Shown: positions 1-6,000 of the stretch, in pieces
Layout: the number at the start of each line of letters is the position of its first letter
Numbering within the stretch: position 1 is the first letter of the stretch
Assembly: GCA_043813365.1 (NCBI GenBank)
Contig: JBDRLB010000077.1
Span: 1-14,796 of the forward strand
Direction of reading: 5' to 3'
Source of the DNA: Candidatus Micrarchaeota archaeon
GTDB taxonomy: Archaea > Micrarchaeota > Micrarchaeia > Norongarragalinales > SBBD01
DNA length: 14,796 nt
Program-made: the position numbers

Positions 1-3000
1 TTGATTTTTTCATCAAAAATGACTTGGAATGTCATTTAAGGTCACTTCTTTTGATTCCCGCCTCCTTCAATACCTCATCGAGCGTAACCGTCCTGCGCTT
101 CCCTGCCTTGATTTCCGCATCTATTTTCATCATTTTTTTGACGGCAAGCTCATCAATGATTTCATCGTGCGTTTTTACCCCCCCATATTCCTTTCCAAGC
201 ATCAGCACCCCCGCACGGAACACTTCCGCTTTCGTTTTGAAATACCCCATGTCAATCAGCCCATCAACGATCCTTGCCAAAGCACCATCCATCCTCACGA
301 CCATCTCCACAACCATCACCCACGAATTGATACCAAATTAATACCAAAATGATATTAAAAAGGCATGTTTTCGTGGTTTTAGCCCTTCCGGAAACTAATA
401 GGATTCGAATTCTAATTAAAGCCTTTTTCGGAGGGTGGGTTCGGGTGCCTACAGTCGACAAAATGCTGCCTTCAAATTTTTTTGCTCGGGTTTATTCCGG
501 GTTTCGCATTAATCCCGATTATTTGTAAGGGATATGTGGAAAGGATATTTATCTGTTGAGCCGACGTTCACGGAGATTTGCCAATATGTGGTTCACGCTT
601 TCCTCGACGTTCATCTCATGCGTATTTACCGTAATTTCGGGATTTTTTGGCCTTTCATAAGCATCCACGATATCAGCAAAGTTCTTAAGTTCCCCTTTGG
701 ACGCCTTCCCGTATAGCCCTTTGGGATCCCTTTTTCTGCATATTTCAACTGGGCAGTTCACGAATATTTCCACATGCCTAGGCACCATGCCCCGCACAAC
801 GATACGTCCCTCTTCATAAGGAGAAAAGTACGGTGCGATTGCAATGATCCCCCTCGCATTCAATCTCTTGCAAATTTTTCCTCCCCGGATGATGGACGAA
901 ATTCGGTCCTTTTTTTCAAATCCTAGCTCCCTACCGATTTTTGCCCGGATCTCATCGCCGTCCACAACCTGAACCCTTCTGCCCATTTCCTTGAGCTTTA
1001 TTTCTAGTTCCCTTGCAAGGATTGTTTTTCCTGAGCCTGAAATGCCCGTCAGCCATAATGTAAACGGCATCCCTTTTTCGATCATAACATTATAGCTTCA
1101 ACAACGTATTTAATATCAGGCGAACCCATCCCCCGTTTCATATATAAACCTCCCCTGCGATTCTATTTCATCTGAAAAAAGGTTTTCCCGATCAACCGCA
1201 AAATCGGATATGCCGAAAATGCCTCCATTATGGAAGCTTGTGGCGTTAGGTGGTAGGAATGAAAGAGGAACTTATGCAAGAGATGGAGCCGGAGCTCTCC
1301 GAGCCCAAAATGAAGGAGAAGAAGGGGAAGAAAATCACCTCCATTGAGGACATCCCCGGTGTTGGCGGCACAATCGCCTCGAAATTGAAGGATGCGGGCT
1401 ACGATACGCTTATGACGCTCGCAGTTTCCATGCCAGTTGAGTTGGCGGAAGTTGCAGGAATCGGCGAGGGCACTGCGATAAAAGTAATTAATGCCGCACG
1501 CGAAGCGCTCGACATGGGCTTCGAAACCGGCGACAAAGTCCTTGAAAGAAGGAAAATAATCTCCAAAATCACAACTGGCTCTAAGGAGCTCGACAATTTG
1601 ATAGGCGGCGGAATTGAAACGCAGGCAATAACTGAAGCATTCGGAAAATTCGGCTCCGGCAAATCGCAGCTCGCATTCCAGCTCTGCGTGAACACCCAGC
1701 TTCCGATTGAACAAGGTGGCCAAGGGGGAGGTGTTTTATTCATCGACTCGGAAAACACTTTCAGGCCGGAAAGGATTGCGCAGATTGCAGCTTCAAGAGG
1801 ACTTGACCCGGATGCAATCCTGAAAAACATCCATATTGCACGCTCTCAAAACTCCGACCACCAGATGCTCCTCGCTGACAAAGCAGGGGACACAATCAAG
1901 GAGCACAACATCAAGCTGATAATCGTGGACTCCCTCACATCCGCCTTCAGGAGCGATTATGTCGGAAGGGGGCAGCTTGCGGATAGGCAGCAAAAGCTCA
2001 ACAAGCACCTCCACACTCTTCAAAAACTGGCCGACATGTACAACGTTGCGGTTTACGTAACAAATCAGGTGATGGACAGGCCCGACATTTTATTCGGCGA
2101 CCCCACGGCGCCTATCGGAGGCAACGTTCTGGCACACCAGAGCACTTACAGGCTGTATTTCCGGAGGAGCAAGGAGGACCGGAGGGTTGCGAAAATAGTG
2201 GACTCCCCCAACATGCCTGATGGGGAATGCGTTTTCAGAGTTACGGAAAAAGGACTAGAAGACGCCGAGTGAGATTTTTATTACTTTTTTTCTTTTCATG
2301 GTCGTGGAGGGGCAAAATAGGTGATGGAAATGGAATATGAGGAAAATGCCTCCGTGATGGAGGAAGAAACAAAGGAAGGCCGCCCCAAAACCGCTCCCAA
2401 AAGGAGGCCGATCAAGGGGCTGAAACTGAATTTCCCTTATTCGCAGGCGAACATCGACCTCGCGCTTTGGGAAAGCAGGATGAGCGAAAAAGGGAAACTG
2501 ATGCCCTCGAGCATCTCCTTGCGCTTGCAGGATGCGGATCCAAGTGTGACTAGAAACGCAATCTATTTCAAGGCGGCTGATGCACTGAAAATCGCGAACA
2601 TACTGCAGAATTTCGCTTACTCGGCGATGCAGGAGGATCAGGATAAGCGGTTTGAATTCTCAAAAATTCGGAAAGGCGCACCGGAGCCGATAAAGGCCAT
2701 CTGACCTCGATTTACCATTTGTAGATTTTCCTTATCGCCTCCTCCAGCATTATCTCGAGCAGCATCGCCTCGTCATCGCTCAGATTTATTTGCATTGCAT
2801 TTACCTGCCCATCCTTGCTCTGCGAGGATAGTTTGAATAAATACCCGAAATCCCCTTTAGTGACCACGAGCGCATTGTTTTTCGTGTCAGCCGAGGAAGC
2901 GTACTCCCCCTTATTCGGGTCATGGAACAGGTTTGCCATCTTGGAACGTCCCTTCAAGACCAATAATATTTTGCTAATATCCACATCAGCCAATTTGAAG

Positions 3001-6000
3001 CTCAGCTTGCTCCCCCAATCAAAAGCGCGCTCCTCCTTCTGCCTTGCAATTTCAAAGAAGATGCTCTCCTTCTCAACCGCAAAGTCGAACTGGCACGCGC
3101 TTCCCTGCATCGCCTTGTTCGGCTTGTAGAATTTCAGCTGGTTCCTGTATCTCTGCTGTTCCATAAAATCACCCTCGCTTTCCCACACCTATCTTCTTGC
3201 ACATCCCATTTAATACGCATTCCGAACACAGCGGTTTTTGCGCTTTGCAGATTTTCCTTCCGAGCATAATGACCTGGACGTGCAAAGGAATTTTCAATTT
3301 GTCCGGAACCGCCTCCTCCATGAATTCATGCGCCTTCCCATAGCTCATTTTTTCCGGTATCAGCGGGATCCTTTTTATCACGCGGAAAATATGCGTATCT
3401 ATAGGGAACGCCGGCTTCCCGAAAGCGAACGCGACAATTACCGCTGCGCTCTTCGGCCCGATCCCATCGAACTGCATCAAATAATTGCGTGCATCAGCGG
3501 GGGAATAATCGGAAAGGAAATCCAAATCCAATTTGCCTGTTTTTTCCTTTATTTGCCTCAAAACGGTCCTGATCCGTTTCGCCTTGATATTTGCGAGGCC
3601 ACCTTCCTTGATCGCTTTTGCGATTTCACGTTCAGGCGAATTTAGCAATTCATCCCAATTTTTAAACCGCCTTTTCAATTTTCTGAACGCCTTCCCCGAA
3701 TTCACATCATTGGTGTTCTGCGAAAGTATCACGTTCACCAACGCATCAATCGAAGGCAATTTCCAGGGCTTTTCCGAACCGTATTCCTTATCCAGCAACC
3801 TATTGATCCGGATTATTTTTGCCCGTAATATTTTCCCTTCCATTATCCCACCAAAATCGTCCGTCCCCCCCCGCCATCAACCCCGGTTCCCGCCCTTCAG
3901 CCAATCTGCTCCCTTACTTCCGCCATCAGCCTGTCAGCTGCGGAAATCGCATCCAGCCCGTGCAGGAAGTTTGCGCCTCCCACCATCTCGTGCCCACCGC
4001 CGCTCCCGTGGAACCGTTTTGCCGCAGCGTCTATCTCCTTCCCCACGTTGAATTTCCCAAGTTCCATTGCCCTTCCCTTCACAGCTGAAATTTTCCCTTC
4101 CTTTTGGTTGGCAACAACAGCAAAATCGCATCCTAAACCTATGAGAGCGGAGGCGCATTTCAGCTCAAAAGCAGAAACCTGCGTTGATGCTATCAGCAAT
4201 TCCCCGATCCTCTCGTACTGCGCCCTCTTCACCGCCTCCATCACTGCAATTTTTTCCGCAGCGTCTTCCCTTACCTCCAGCAATTGGTAAATCTCCTGCA
4301 GATCCATGGTGCTTCCTTTCAGGCATTCGCCCAGCGCTTCTATGGCGGAATTATTTGCGCTTTTCAGGTCGGCCGTATCGGAAACAATTCCGAGGGCAAT
4401 CAATATCGCATCCCCATCCTCGACTTTCCTCCCCATTGCGCCGAAAAGCCCGAAAACTATTTCGCTGCAGGAAGTTTTTTTCGGGTCGCAATAAATTTCT
4501 CCCTTCATTGGGTGATTATGCAAGTGGTGGTCGATGGCGATGATTTTCCCCTTGAACTTTCCGAATTCGTTGTGCAAGTTCCCAAGCAGTGCCGGAGTGC
4601 TCACATCCATGAAAATCAAATTATCATACTTTTCCAATTCCCCCTCCCCGAAAGCATCCAGGTTCAAATTGAGCCTTCCCCATACTTTCCGTGCCTGGGA
4701 GTTTACGGAGTCAATTCTGCGGACCTCCGCGCCTTTTACCAGATGCTGCAATGCGAATGCGCTCGCTACCGCATCCACGTCGCCTATTGAATGGAACGTA
4801 ATTGCCGTATTTCCTTTCAGGGATTTCAACTCCTTTACCAAATCATTAAAAGTCAGCGATCCCATAATTATCGAACGTCTTCCCCGAATATAAAACGGAC
4901 GGATCAACATGGAAATTCTGATATCCCTGAACGCGCTTGAAAGCGCCCTATATGCAGCCAAGAGCACGCACCCGCACGAATTCGTTGGCCTTTTCCGGGA
5001 GAAAAACGGAATTCTTTGCGAGCTCCTTGTTGCGCCATTGACCATTTCAGATGAGAGTTCTGCCACTTTCCCGGTTTATGCGATTCCCACGGATCCCACA
5101 ATAGTCGCTACCTACCATTCCCATCCGAGCATGGGCACGCCCCGTCCCTCGAGGGCGGACCTTAACCTCTTTTCAAGGCATTACCGCATCCATTTCATTT
5201 CCTCCTATCCTCACACTACCCAAACCACCCGTGCGTTCTCCAACCTGGGGGAGCCGCTCAGTTTTACCATTGTTGACTGATAATCAACAAAAAACCCTTT
5301 TAATGGAGAGGTTTTTATACCTCCATAAATTATCCCTAAGTGGGTAGCGTTATCCCTTTCATGGTTGCATTATTATGAACGTAAAAGGATTGCTTTTTTT
5401 CATCCTCTTGCTTTCCCTTTCTATTGAAATTGCCGCGGTTCCGACGCAGATCGCTTCCGGCCAAAGTGTCCTTACAATACCGCGGCATAAAATATTCCAA
5501 TCCCAGACGAACCCGAACGAAATTTGGGCGATTTTCCAAGGCCCCGGAACTGGAAATAGCAACAACTTCATCAAAACAACCAATGGCGGTACAACCTGGA
5601 GCACTCCCCTTACAATTAGGTATTACCTCGATTATCATGCCTCCCTTGATGGCGATTCGGCCGGCAACCTATACGTTGCTGATCCCGACTCGGGCGCCGC
5701 TTATTTCCGCAAAATTAATTACCCGGGGGCCAGCACATCCGATTTCGGGCCTGAAATGCACCTCACTTCCGCCTACATCCCTTCGGGGGTGGGCACCCGC
5801 AACAACGTGATTGCGCAAAGCACAAGTAGCATTTTCGTCATTGCACGGACATCCGTAAATACTGTCGGCAATGTGCGTTATTTCCATTCCACTGATGGTG
5901 GCGTTACCTTTCCGCAGCAAGGATGGGTTTCCGATACCGGATATGACAATGTGAGGATCGGCTCAATTCTCGTGAACGGCCAGCCTGCTGTAGTGATGTG

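Follow-up and report, generated by a model that had tools for sequence, protein, structure and literature searches.

The window analysed here is the whole 14,796-nt stretch of contig JBDRLB010000077.1 (assembly GCA_043813365.1) from a Candidatus Micrarchaeota (DPANN) archaeon, a tiny one living in groundwater, and the Whirly-family gene lies in it among the following features.

Organization of the Whirly locus

1250..2272, plus strand: radA recombinase gene, context only; Pfam Rad51 7e-93, NCBIfam RadA 8.6e-147 (over its cut-off); convergent with the Whirly gene
2321..2704, plus strand: conserved gene for a 127-aa protein, context only; downstream of radA and convergent on the Whirly gene, with 7 nt between the stop codons
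2712..3164, minus strand: Whirly-family gene (PF08536), 150 aa plus stop from its probable start; the mechanical ORF reaches a GTG at 3188
3165..3180, minus strand: glycosylase/Whirly junction, with the TGA stop (3171..3169), a 4-nt spacer and a Shine-Dalgarno-like GAGGGTGA before the ATG at 3164, as read from the sequence
3169..3843, minus strand: HhH-GPD DNA glycosylase gene, endonuclease III-like, 224 aa with a C-terminal Fe-S cluster motif; Pfam HhH-GPD 1.2e-15, EndIII_4Fe-2S 2.5e-5
3897..4865, minus strand: DHH/DHHA1 phosphoesterase gene, paralogue A (NrnA/phosphodiesterase-like), about 322 aa; Pfam DHH 2e-9, DHHA1 6.7e-5
4888..4895, minus strand: TATA-box-like TTTTATAT, with its centre some 26-27 nt upstream of the ATG (4865) of the DHH gene, likewise read from the sequence

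The minus-strand ORF that the survey's finding had placed at 2715..3188 is real: it is the mechanical ORF 2712..3188 without its stop codon, 158 codons from a GTG, and its translation contains FHDPNKG. The Whirly proteins of relatives begin at a methionine equivalent to the ATG at 3164, the database representative of the archaeal protein (P0006) has 150 aa, and this ATG lies 4 nt past the glycosylase TGA with GAGGGTGA ahead of it. We therefore delimit the gene as 2712..3164, and the true start is probably the ATG at 3164, giving a protein of 150 aa. The glycosylase and Whirly genes are probably translationally coupled. Upstream of both, the DHH gene has a mechanical ORF that extends to a GTG at 5066, and its relatives, of 322 and 324 aa, start at the equivalent methionine. 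By general knowledge of archaeal promoters, TTTTATAT is a candidate promoter for a DHH-glycosylase-Whirly transcript.

Among NCBIfam models, the glycosylase matched monofunctional DNA glycosylase at 7e-41 and nth at 1.2e-29, in each case under the equivalog cut-off. The best PDB matches of the DHH protein were 9r7o ('DHH family', 3.6e-5), TmPDE and NrnA, and such a likeness to NrnA-type nanoRNases and phosphodiesterases suits RNA as well as DNA. [quoted passage not shown]

The gene had been described as lying between radA and an HhH-GPD gene. The glycosylase is indeed directly upstream and co-directional, but on the other side the 127-aa gene intervenes before radA and both of these genes are convergent with the Whirly gene. 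Because radA is on the opposite strand, convergent, separated by a further gene, and near the Whirly gene in no more than 3 loci of 40 (each from a relative at the genus level), its proximity is weak evidence about function.

Family membership, predicted fold and predicted assembly

The protein belongs to the Whirly family. A search against Pfam returned PF08536 at E 7e-10 (39.3 bits, cut-off 23; residues 40-144 aligned to profile positions 29-133 of 136), and phmmer against the PDB at E<=10 returned only six distinct sequences, all of them plant Whirly proteins, the best being 1l3a at 4.5e-4; both results reproduce those recorded before. The 11 related Micrarchaeota proteins that were scanned scored 37-51 bits on PF08536. 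Membership is far better founded than these first scores conveyed: a profile built from 133 relatives matched potato PBF-2 p24 at E 1.6e-16 (profile 10-151, chain 42-196), WHY1, WHY2 and WHY3 at about 1e-14 and Trypanosoma brucei MRP1 at 2.9e-5, and the predicted fold aligned with plant Whirly structures at Z 17.7-17.8.

The domain spans the protein from about residue 9 to the last residue, W150. Conserved across the family are Y13, K14, G21, F48-D49-W50, D62, H81 (invariant across 151 family sequences), E132 and the C-terminal W150. Among the positions of the archaeal protein, Y13, K14, F48-D49-W50, F80-H81-D82-P83 and W150 align with the plant YK, YDW, FHDP and terminal GW positions. The plant KGKAAL motif was not found in literal form, the archaeal protein reading YKPNKA; in the HMM alignment K14 corresponds to the first KGKAAL lysine, N16 stands at the second and K17 is one position off. 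The second lysine is described as driving plant Whirly proteins to assemble into 24-mers (PMC3245945, PMC9070903). The protein has a pI of 8.6 and 17 aromatic residues in 150.

An AF2 model (pLDDT 93.9, pTM 0.87) shows two beta-beta-beta-beta-alpha repeats. Its best Foldseek matches were AtWHY1, AtWHY3, PBF-2 and StWhy2 (E 1e-7 to about 7e-7; TMq 0.65-0.77, most 0.73-0.77), and the top six were all plant Whirly chains (TMq 0.75-0.77). In VIA-align, StWhy2 reached Z 17.8 (138 residues aligned at an rmsd of 2.8 A) and PBF-2 Z 17.7, followed by MRP at Z 16.6 and then by a drop to Pur-alpha at Z 6.3. Other identities were considered and rejected. For Pur-alpha, the model comparison gave Z 6.3 with TMq 0.35-0.41, which indicates no close likeness to PUR repeats, and the Pfam PurA model did not match the archaeal protein; nor did the Pfam SSB and RPA models of the OB-fold single-strand binders. 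Membership of MRP1/MRP2 was set aside as well, the MRP model (PF09387) finding no match to the archaeal protein at E<=0.1 and a single weak one, below its cut-off, among 142 relatives.

Four copies of the chain were predicted to form a homotetramer, with a score of 0.91 against 0.00 for the best control and a partner pLDDT of 86; at least 80% of contacts agreed between runs, and the interface is formed by helices 60-68 and 129-150. In calibration the mark of this tool was reached by 20 of 30 solved pairs and by 1 of 23 single chains. Assembly as a homotetramer through these helices is most likely on the model, although the high score may stem from solved plant Whirly tetramers that the model has learned.

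Distribution of the family and of its neighbours

Patchy occurrence within Micrarchaeota was upheld in a wider search, in which the Whirly gene was found, always over the cut-off, in 40 of the 401 phylum genomes searched. Besides the genome studied here (G000), families f1-f10 of the order contribute 31 of their 49 genomes, and another 8 come from five further families of the class. The gene was not found in families f11 (0/30), f12 (0/94), f13 (0/82) and f18 (0/76), and its reported absence from 14 model prokaryotes was confirmed, with no match in the 14 control genomes.

The survey's finding had also called the family 'plant-specific', a label used in plant reviews (PMC9070903, PMC11359715), and this did not hold. 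A profile search detected 747 metagenomic cluster representatives at E<=1e-3, with Micrarchaeota as the top-scoring group (14 of them at E<=1e-30). In the ESM Atlas the closest clusters, automatically named Whirly, come from bacteria (Verrucomicrobiota) and viruses (Uroviricota), and in UniProt a phage protein already bears the name 'Whirly transcription factor'. According to its methods and the legend of its Fig. S4, a 2024 plant paper took 'sequences from bacteria and archaea' as an outgroup (PMC11712025). The Whirly family is thus not plant-specific, since it is common in uncultured bacteria and phages, and the earlier caveat that Pfam might already list prokaryotic members was borne out, prokaryotic and phage Whirly proteins being present in databases. 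No prokaryotic member appears to have been studied so far. An IMG/VR viral contig of 176 kb carries one relative, amid genes for a dUTPase, ribonucleotide reductase, dCMP deaminase and an HNH endonuclease; the archaeal protein itself fell in no PHROG family and matched none of 50,697 phage records.

On the same strand, the gene that recurs upstream encodes a DHH phosphoesterase: it lies at most two genes from the Whirly gene in 18 of the 40 loci. Of these 18, 5 have paralogue A (f1, 5/5) and the other 13 have paralogue B (f2, 5/15; f3, 6/6; f4, 1/2; f8, 1/1). In NCBIfam, paralogue B best matches the RecJ and HAN families of DNA nucleases, and no similarity between the two paralogues was detected by BLASTP. 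G000 carries paralogue B elsewhere, on contig C26. The glycosylase is directly upstream of the Whirly gene in 4 of 40 loci, all from one family. A DHH neighbour is absent from 22 of the 40 loci, including all 8 outside the order, where unrelated genes stand instead, and the adjacency could merely be gene order inherited within one order. Fused forms of the domain, which could tie it to a pathway, were not found, itself weak evidence.

Proposed role, alternatives and comparison with known systems

G000 encodes a protein of 485 aa resembling replication factor A (PDB 8aaj, 6e-18) and an SSB-like OB protein of 125 aa, both from genes away from the Whirly locus. Because a canonical RPA is present, the Whirly protein is not the main SSB or its replacement; it would be an accessory binder that supplements RPA and SSB and is no substitute for either. 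We consider it fairly probable that the protein is a minimal stand-alone Whirly tetramer, an accessory single-strand binder that works with DHH enzymes and the glycosylase in DNA repair. Each chain would consist of a single predicted Whirly domain of two beta-beta-beta-beta-alpha repeats, with neither transit peptide nor tails, and would most likely form a whirligig homotetramer via its two helices. By analogy with plant Whirly tetramers, single-stranded nucleic acid would most likely be bound, without regard to its sequence, on or between the aromatic-rich, mildly basic beta-sheets. In G000 the gene would be co-transcribed with the endonuclease III-like glycosylase and the DHH/DHHA1 phosphoesterase, and in other families of the order it stands directly behind the gene of a RecJ/HAN-like DHH nuclease. 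Single-stranded DNA exposed by nucleases and by the glycosylase/lyase on damaged DNA or ends would then most likely be coated and protected, and such coating may lessen spurious annealing, as proposed by analogy with the Whirly proteins of plant organelles. Points against this reading include the absence of the literal KGKAAL motif, the RNA binders MRP1/2 as the closest structures after the plant proteins (Z 16.6), the RNA preference of ChmC, and the limited spread of the DHH and glycosylase neighbours.

It is unlikely, in our estimate, that the tetramer binds mainly RNA and serves as a chaperone or matchmaker, in the manner of MRP1/2 in trypanosomes, ChmC in phages or WHY1 in maize splicing; it would then act with an NrnA-like DHH enzyme in RNA turnover and not in DNA repair. 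MRP1/2 are almost as near structurally as the plant Whirlies (Z 16.6 vs 17.8) and the family profile detects MRP1 at 2.9e-5; ChmC, a phage homotetramer of Whirly fold, is reported to bind RNA with a Kd of 58 nM and DNA with 184 nM (bioRxiv 2023.09.22.559000). The DHH paralogue in the window best fits NrnA and phosphodiesterase-type enzymes, and in other families the Whirly block lies beside genes for Trm1, ribosomal protein L35Ae and TFB. However, the top sequence similarity is to ssDNA-binding plant proteins, the gene is coupled to that of a DNA glycosylase in the window, in 13 loci it follows a DHH gene whose best NCBIfam matches are RecJ/HAN DNA nucleases, and the viral relative is set in a block of deoxynucleotide metabolism. 

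In 14 of the 40 loci a TFB gene lies on the same strand at a distance of 1-4 genes upstream, in 3 of them as the immediate neighbour. It could point to a different partner, with which the protein could act as a transcription cofactor of the PC4/Sub1 type that works with TFIIB, or else as an abundant nucleoid-associated protein on chromatin, outside repair. WHIRLY1 of plants compacts the nucleoids of plastids and is characterized as an architectural protein of the nucleoid (PMC9070903), and the PC4-like superfamily includes transcription cofactors (PMC7549692). Such a role is quite improbable: in G000 TFB is encoded on another contig (C56) whereas the Whirly gene sits with those for the DHH enzyme and glycosylase, TFB, a housekeeping gene, may stand where it does simply through inheritance of gene order, and no Whirly gene was found in 361 of the 401 genomes searched, which would be odd for a core chromatin protein. 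Patchy spread, the largely viral (Uroviricota) atlas clusters nearest outside the clade and the relative on the 176-kb viral contig could instead point to a recently acquired viral or mobile-element gene, such as a phage replication or anti-defence ssDNA binder serving the element and not the host. We regard this as very improbable, given housekeeping neighbours (radA, glycosylase, DHH, glycosyltransferase and RNase P RNA), a G+C content around the gene (0.487-0.495) within the window's range (0.447-0.542), retention, with local gene order conserved, in 31 of the 49 further genomes from the order, the top profile scores of Micrarchaeota sequences, and the lack of a PHROG family or of a match among the phage records searched.

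Beyond the accessory role in repair, we tentatively suggest that Whirly may be an old and diverse family of minimal single-strand-binding tetramers in phages, bacteria and DPANN archaea, a prokaryotic/viral pool from which the plant organelle Whirlies might derive. The phage-type organelle RNA polymerase and the Twinkle helicase are held to derive from such a pool. In Micrarchaeota the protein might form a module with RecJ-family DHH nucleases, two paralogues having been recruited in different families, and steer resected or gapped DNA alongside RPA. If this were true, Whirly would be no plant or eukaryotic invention.

Compared with known systems, the archaeal protein shares with canonical archaeal RPA and SSB only the presumed coating of ssDNA, their OB fold being unrelated to the Whirly fold. 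Pur-alpha, PC4 and the bacterial PC4-like ssDNA binders (YdbC, SP_0782, the Shedu and Menshen sensor domains) have the same broad PC4-like superfold, described as binding single strands across all domains of life (PMC7549692; bioRxiv 2023.08.10.552793; PMC12065111), but are far more distant (Pur-alpha Z 6.3, TMq about 0.4), and most are single-repeat dimers and not tandem-repeat tetramers. ChmC of nucleus-forming jumbo phages, compared by description only, is likewise a Whirly-fold homotetramer binding single-stranded nucleic acid, and, as the one phage tetramer of this fold to have been studied, prefers RNA (bioRxiv 2023.09.22.559000); the archaeal protein differs as a tail-less, sequence-level member of PF08536. 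MRP1/MRP2, described as a heterotetramer binding the RNA backbone (PMC7549692), have the type I PC4-like fold and the whirligig tetramer in common with it (Z 16.6; 132 residues aligned at an rmsd of 2.4 A) and weak profile similarity (2.9e-5), whereas the Pfam MRP model is silent on the archaeal protein at E<=0.1. From the plant Whirlies (PBF-2 p24/StWHY1, StWHY2, AtWHY1-3) the archaeal protein differs in having only about 16-23% identity, a length of 150 aa without transit peptide or C-terminal extension, no in-register conservation of the 24-mer lysine or of the literal KGKAAL motif, and a chromosomal gene that shares a putative operon with those for a glycosylase and a DHH enzyme. The two nonetheless share homology over the whole domain (E 1.6e-16), the same tandem fold (Z 17.7-17.8, rmsd 2.8 A), the positions around YK, (Y/F)DW, FHDP and the terminal W, and a helix-mediated homotetramer, which for the archaeal protein is predicted.

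The Whirly gene, its protein and its predicted structure

The survey had placed a Whirly gene at 2715..3188, between radA and a HhH-GPD glycosylase gene. That interval is a minus-strand open reading frame of 158 codons without its stop codon, running from GTG 3188 to the stop at 2712-2714, and its peptide does contain the FHDPNKG motif. The database representative of the protein (P0006) is 150 aa long, close relatives open at the equivalent Met, and on the minus strand the TGA that ends the glycosylase gene (3171..3169) is followed by four bases and then by ATG 3164, ahead of which stands GAGGGTGA. 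The Whirly gene is therefore taken as 2712..3164, and this arrangement suggests that its translation is coupled to that of the upstream glycosylase gene. The G+C content near the gene is 0.487-0.495, within a window range of 0.447-0.542. The features around it are as follows.

1250..2272, plus strand: radA, upstream of the 127-aa gene
2321..2704, plus strand: conserved 127-aa gene, downstream of radA and convergent with Whirly, with 7 nt between the stop codons
3169..3843, minus strand: endonuclease III-like HhH-GPD glycosylase with an Fe-S motif, directly upstream of Whirly and co-directional
ATG 4865, minus strand: start of a DHH/DHHA1 phosphoesterase gene, separated from the glycosylase gene by 53 nt (mechanical ORF, 389 aa)
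4888-4895, minus strand: TTTTATAT, archaeal TATA-box-like, about 26-27 nt upstream of the DHH ATG 4865
13338..13614, minus strand: archaeal RNase P RNA (Rfam RF00373), full length, 103.5 bits (gathering score 84)

The glycosylase gene lies directly upstream, but radA is not adjacent: the convergent 127-aa gene intervenes, so radA neither adjoins Whirly nor shares its transcription unit. Relatives of the DHH protein are 322 and 324 aa long with a first Met equivalent to ATG 4865, and its best PDB matches are 9r7o (a 'DHH family' protein), TmPDE and NrnA. From its sequence and position, TTTTATAT looks like a candidate TATA box for one DHH-glycosylase-Whirly transcript. The contig is clearly archaeal and chromosomal, and belongs to a genome of 1.34 Mb in 78 contigs that is 88.6% complete.

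Several further observations were made in the window. The 127-aa gene has no Pfam or NCBIfam family; within the order, 17 of 60 genomes keep it (8/9 in family f1, 8/19 in f2). A model of its product from a four-sequence alignment (pLDDT 73) begins with a basic N-terminal tail that is disordered and then forms one beta-beta-beta-beta-alpha unit; the best Foldseek match is weak (Borrelia Pur-alpha, E 0.066) and VIA-align returned nothing with Z>=5. One possibility is that this protein is another nucleic-acid binder, PC4/PUR-like but with a single repeat, tied to radA. Between the DHH gene and the next gene, about 500 bp of non-coding DNA (4866..5374) is unusually long for a 1.3-Mb genome; about 356 nt of it is 70% identical to the equivalent region of a genus-level relative (L004/L058), no Rfam match was found in it at E<=1, and it might represent a leader, a small gene or an uncharacterized RNA. 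The gene that follows (5375..11362, plus strand) encodes a 1995-aa surface protein with a signal-like N-terminus and Big_7, fibronectin-III and purple-acid-phosphatase-N-like Ig repeats, and is inserted relative to relatives L031 and L044, where DUF424 and glycosyltransferase genes sit nearer the DHH gene. A mechanical ORF (12836..13453, minus strand) overlaps the RNase P RNA and is probably too long at that end, or spurious.

The survey had assigned the protein to Pfam Whirly, and the match was reproduced: PF08536 is hit with E 7e-10 and 39.3 bits, where the gathering score is 23, and residues 40-144 align to positions 29-133 of the 136 in the profile. No other Pfam family matched at E<=0.1. 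It had also found only plant Whirlies among PDB sequences and none of the family in its controls. Both results recurred: phmmer against all PDB chains gave six distinct sequences at E<=10, all plant Whirlies and led by potato PBF-2 p24 (1l3a, 4.5e-4), and the Pfam model was silent in all 14 control genomes. A word-indexed search returned only six close relatives, each already annotated PF08536. A HMMER profile built from these six was searched against 1.84 billion cluster representatives and recovered 747 proteins, mostly of 140-175 aa, at E<=1e-3; 202 of them remain at E<=1e-10, and 14 at E<=1e-30. By our own count, 83 of the 142 scanned with Pfam match PF08536 at E<=0.001; one has only a weak MRP match and 58 have no Pfam family. 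An alignment of 133 of the scanned relatives (A2, numbered on the 150-aa protein) has an invariant H81, near-invariant Y13, G21, W50, D62 and E132, and W at the C-terminus. The A2 profile matched PBF-2 p24 over the whole domain (E 1.6e-16, 63.8 bits), WHY1, WHY2 and WHY3 at about 1e-14 and Trypanosoma brucei MRP1 at 2.9e-5. These results make homology of the archaeal protein to plant Whirlies secure.

Some non-archaeal relatives (P0103, P0158, P0159) carry a zinc-ribbon-like insertion of 30-50 residues with paired Cys motifs between the first Whirly strands. They begin directly at a YKG-type motif and score higher, 58-75 bits, against the plant-built Pfam model, and they look intermediate between the archaeal and plant types. 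No fused Whirly form was found among the 301-2000-aa proteins searched, which is weak evidence.

AlphaFold2 on A2 gave a confident model (pLDDT 93.9, pTM 0.87) with the topology of two beta-beta-beta-beta-alpha repeats: E9-14, E22-29, E34-44, E54-58 and H60-70, then E76-81, E94-103, E108-116, E121-128 and H130-147. The top Foldseek matches in the PDB were AtWHY1, PBF-2, AtWHY3 and StWhy2 (E 1e-7 to about 7e-7), with TMq mostly 0.73-0.77 for plant Whirlies and 0.65-0.67 for two StWhy2 crystal forms; MRP1/2 came next (0.66-0.67) and Pur-alpha far lower (about 0.4). VIA-align, which is independent of Foldseek, ranked them alike: StWhy2 (Z 17.8, rmsd 2.8 A over 138 residues), PBF-2 (Z 17.7, 139 residues, 23% identity) and MRP (Z 16.6), followed by a fall to Pur-alpha (Z 6.3). 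A four-copy prediction scored 0.91 versus 0.00 for the best of three controls, with at least 80% of contacts the same between runs, a partner pLDDT of 86 and an interface formed by helices 60-68 and 129-150. In calibration, 20 of the 30 solved pairs reached this mark, as did 1 of the 23 single chains; two copies were used throughout, so that the calibration applies here only roughly. The predicted tetramer shows likeness to plant Whirlies; since plant Whirly tetramers are already solved, the result may stem from the model's memory. With a pI of 8.6 the protein is mildly basic, and 17 of its residues are aromatic.

Distribution and gene context of the family

When one genome per species was scanned by pattern, 11 loci turned up, and every one belongs to a MAG whose title reads Micrarchaeota, Micrarchaeia or Norongarragalinales. 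A six-frame search covering 401 phylum genomes detected the family in 40, all above the cut-off; among high-quality phylum genomes it is present in 17 of 188. Besides the source genome, 31 of 49 genomes of the order (families f1-f10) have it, and eight further Whirly genomes are spread over five other families of the class. The same search gave no Whirly in families f11 (0/30), f12 (0/94), f13 (0/82) and f18 (0/76). Outside the phylum, ESM-Atlas neighbors of P0006 fall in clusters auto-named 'Whirly transcription factor domain-containing protein', mostly of Verrucomicrobiota (bacterial) or Uroviricota (viral), and those of P0158, a more plant-like relative, include Streptophyta, Uroviricota, Verrucomicrobiota and Euglenozoa.

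Around all 39 other six-frame matches, about 10 kb was cut out, ORFs were called, and neighbors were clustered and annotated; four loci with fewer than two upstream genes on the contig were retained in the denominators. In 18 of the 40 loci the first or second gene upstream of Whirly on the same strand is a DHH gene. At 13 of these (f2 5/15, f3 6/6, f4 1/2, f8 1/1) it encodes a protein of 440-470 aa that scores best in NCBIfam against HAN nuclease and archaeal RecJ, under the cut-offs of both. At all five f1 loci, the window included, it is an NrnA-like paralog. The idea of a single conserved DHH ortholog beside Whirly was rejected, because the two paralogs have no BLASTP similarity and the source genome has the other families' ortholog elsewhere. 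There, one of three DHH genes is RecJ/HAN-like, on contig C26 adjoining L35Ae. In f1, then, Whirly and the block seen in the other families have parted, and Whirly follows another DHH gene; the move may have gone in either direction. With three DHH genes among roughly 1,400 genes, a chance landing behind one is unlikely by a rough post hoc estimate.

The other neighbors vary. The glycosylase gene is upstream of Whirly in 4 of 40 loci, TFB in 14 and a divergent Trm1 gene in 14. The 127-aa gene and radA are each near Whirly in 3 of 40 loci; with radA also convergent, a RadA partnership is unsupported. The eight loci outside the order have unrelated neighbors (histidine phosphatase, GTPase, PIN, cobalamin adenosyltransferase, RelA/SpoT, PAC2 and ThyX). 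The context signal is real but modest, and is partly inherited gene order.

A separate pattern was seen downstream of Whirly. There, a gene of about 500 codons without a Pfam family (cluster c5, including L005..L012; 13/40 loci) is encoded on the strand opposite to Whirly and has a gene for a TrmB-family regulator after it. The arrangement recurs in 13-14 of 40 loci; in the source genome this pair is on contig C46.

Possible roles of the archaeal Whirly

What we say on function we infer throughout. Replacement of SSB by Whirly was rejected, as the source genome has a 485-aa multi-OB protein matching replication factor A (PDB 8aaj, 6e-18, and several NCBIfam RFA models) and a second OB gene for a 125-aa SSB-like protein; its search with Pfam SSB (PF00436) gave no match, and Rep_fac-A_C a sub-threshold match only. 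On the best reading, Whirly would be an accessory single-strand-binding tetramer. Plant Whirlies are thought to protect ssDNA at resected ends (PMC3245945; PMC7549692), and by analogy the archaeal tetramer would shield ssDNA that arises from nuclease and glycosylase processing.

The main rival to this accessory ssDNA-binding role is RNA binding. It is favored by the closeness of MRP1/2 in structural comparisons, by the RNA preference of ChmC, the sole studied phage Whirly-fold tetramer, and by the NrnA-like nature of the DHH protein in the window. A role as nucleoid protein or transcription cofactor is less likely, and so is a mobile-element origin of the gene. Viral members exist: a UniProt phage entry in BFVD is named 'Whirly transcription factor', and the relative P0171 is encoded on a 176-kb IMG/VR contig amid genes for HNH endonuclease, dUTPase, class II ribonucleotide reductase and dCMP deaminase. 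Searches by tblastn with P0006, P0171 and P0063 against 50,697 GenBank phage records gave no match, P0006 has no PHROG family, and IMG/VR scans returned only its own contig for P0171 and nothing for P0034 or P0006.

Relation to plant Whirlies and other known systems

Plant biologists see Whirlies as guardians of organelle genomes. Plant reviews label WHIRLY plant-specific (PMC9070903, PMC11712025, PMC11359715), and one study describes it as a eukaryotic component acquired by the green-plant ancestor as an addition to the chloroplast nucleoid (PMC4758235). One plant paper took bacterial and archaeal homologs as outgroup (S4 legend, PMC11712025); its supplementary text does not name the organisms. 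Given this outgroup and the database names, prokaryotic homologs were already visible and had been noticed in passing. Our literature searches turned up no work on any prokaryotic member of PF08536, nor any paper connecting Whirly to DPANN or Micrarchaeota. What this analysis adds is where the archaeal clade occurs, how minimal its architecture is, a predicted tetramer, a context of DHH and glycosylase genes, and the presence of Whirly alongside RPA.

The many compact relatives outside plants, among them an archaeal clade that keeps the gene vertically and in a repair-type context, bear on the plant-specific view, allow phylogeny to test where the plant family came from and offer simple, tractable proteins for the core Whirly mechanism. 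A prokaryotic or viral origin of plant Whirlies, taken together with a Whirly-DHH nuclease module, is a tentative proposal that we regard as rather doubtful. In genome-reduced DPANN archaea with a sparse DNA-repair toolkit, the protein would be a second kind of single-strand binder beside RPA, and the repeated pairing with a DHH nuclease suggests a concrete biochemical experiment.

In a review of PC4-like proteins, the tandem-repeat members given are only plant Whirlies, MRP1/2 and Pur-alpha (PMC7549692). MRP1/2 are, judged from the predicted model, almost as close to the archaeal protein as plant Whirlies are. Unlike plant Whirlies, the archaeal protein has neither a transit peptide nor a C-terminal tail, and the plant KGKAAL motif reads YKPNKA; in the HMM alignment the first lysine corresponds to K14 and the second to N16, with the invariant K17 one position on. 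Because these plant features are not kept, the archaeal protein is, on its sequence, a member of the Pfam Whirly family that stands outside the plant WHY1/2/3 subgroup.
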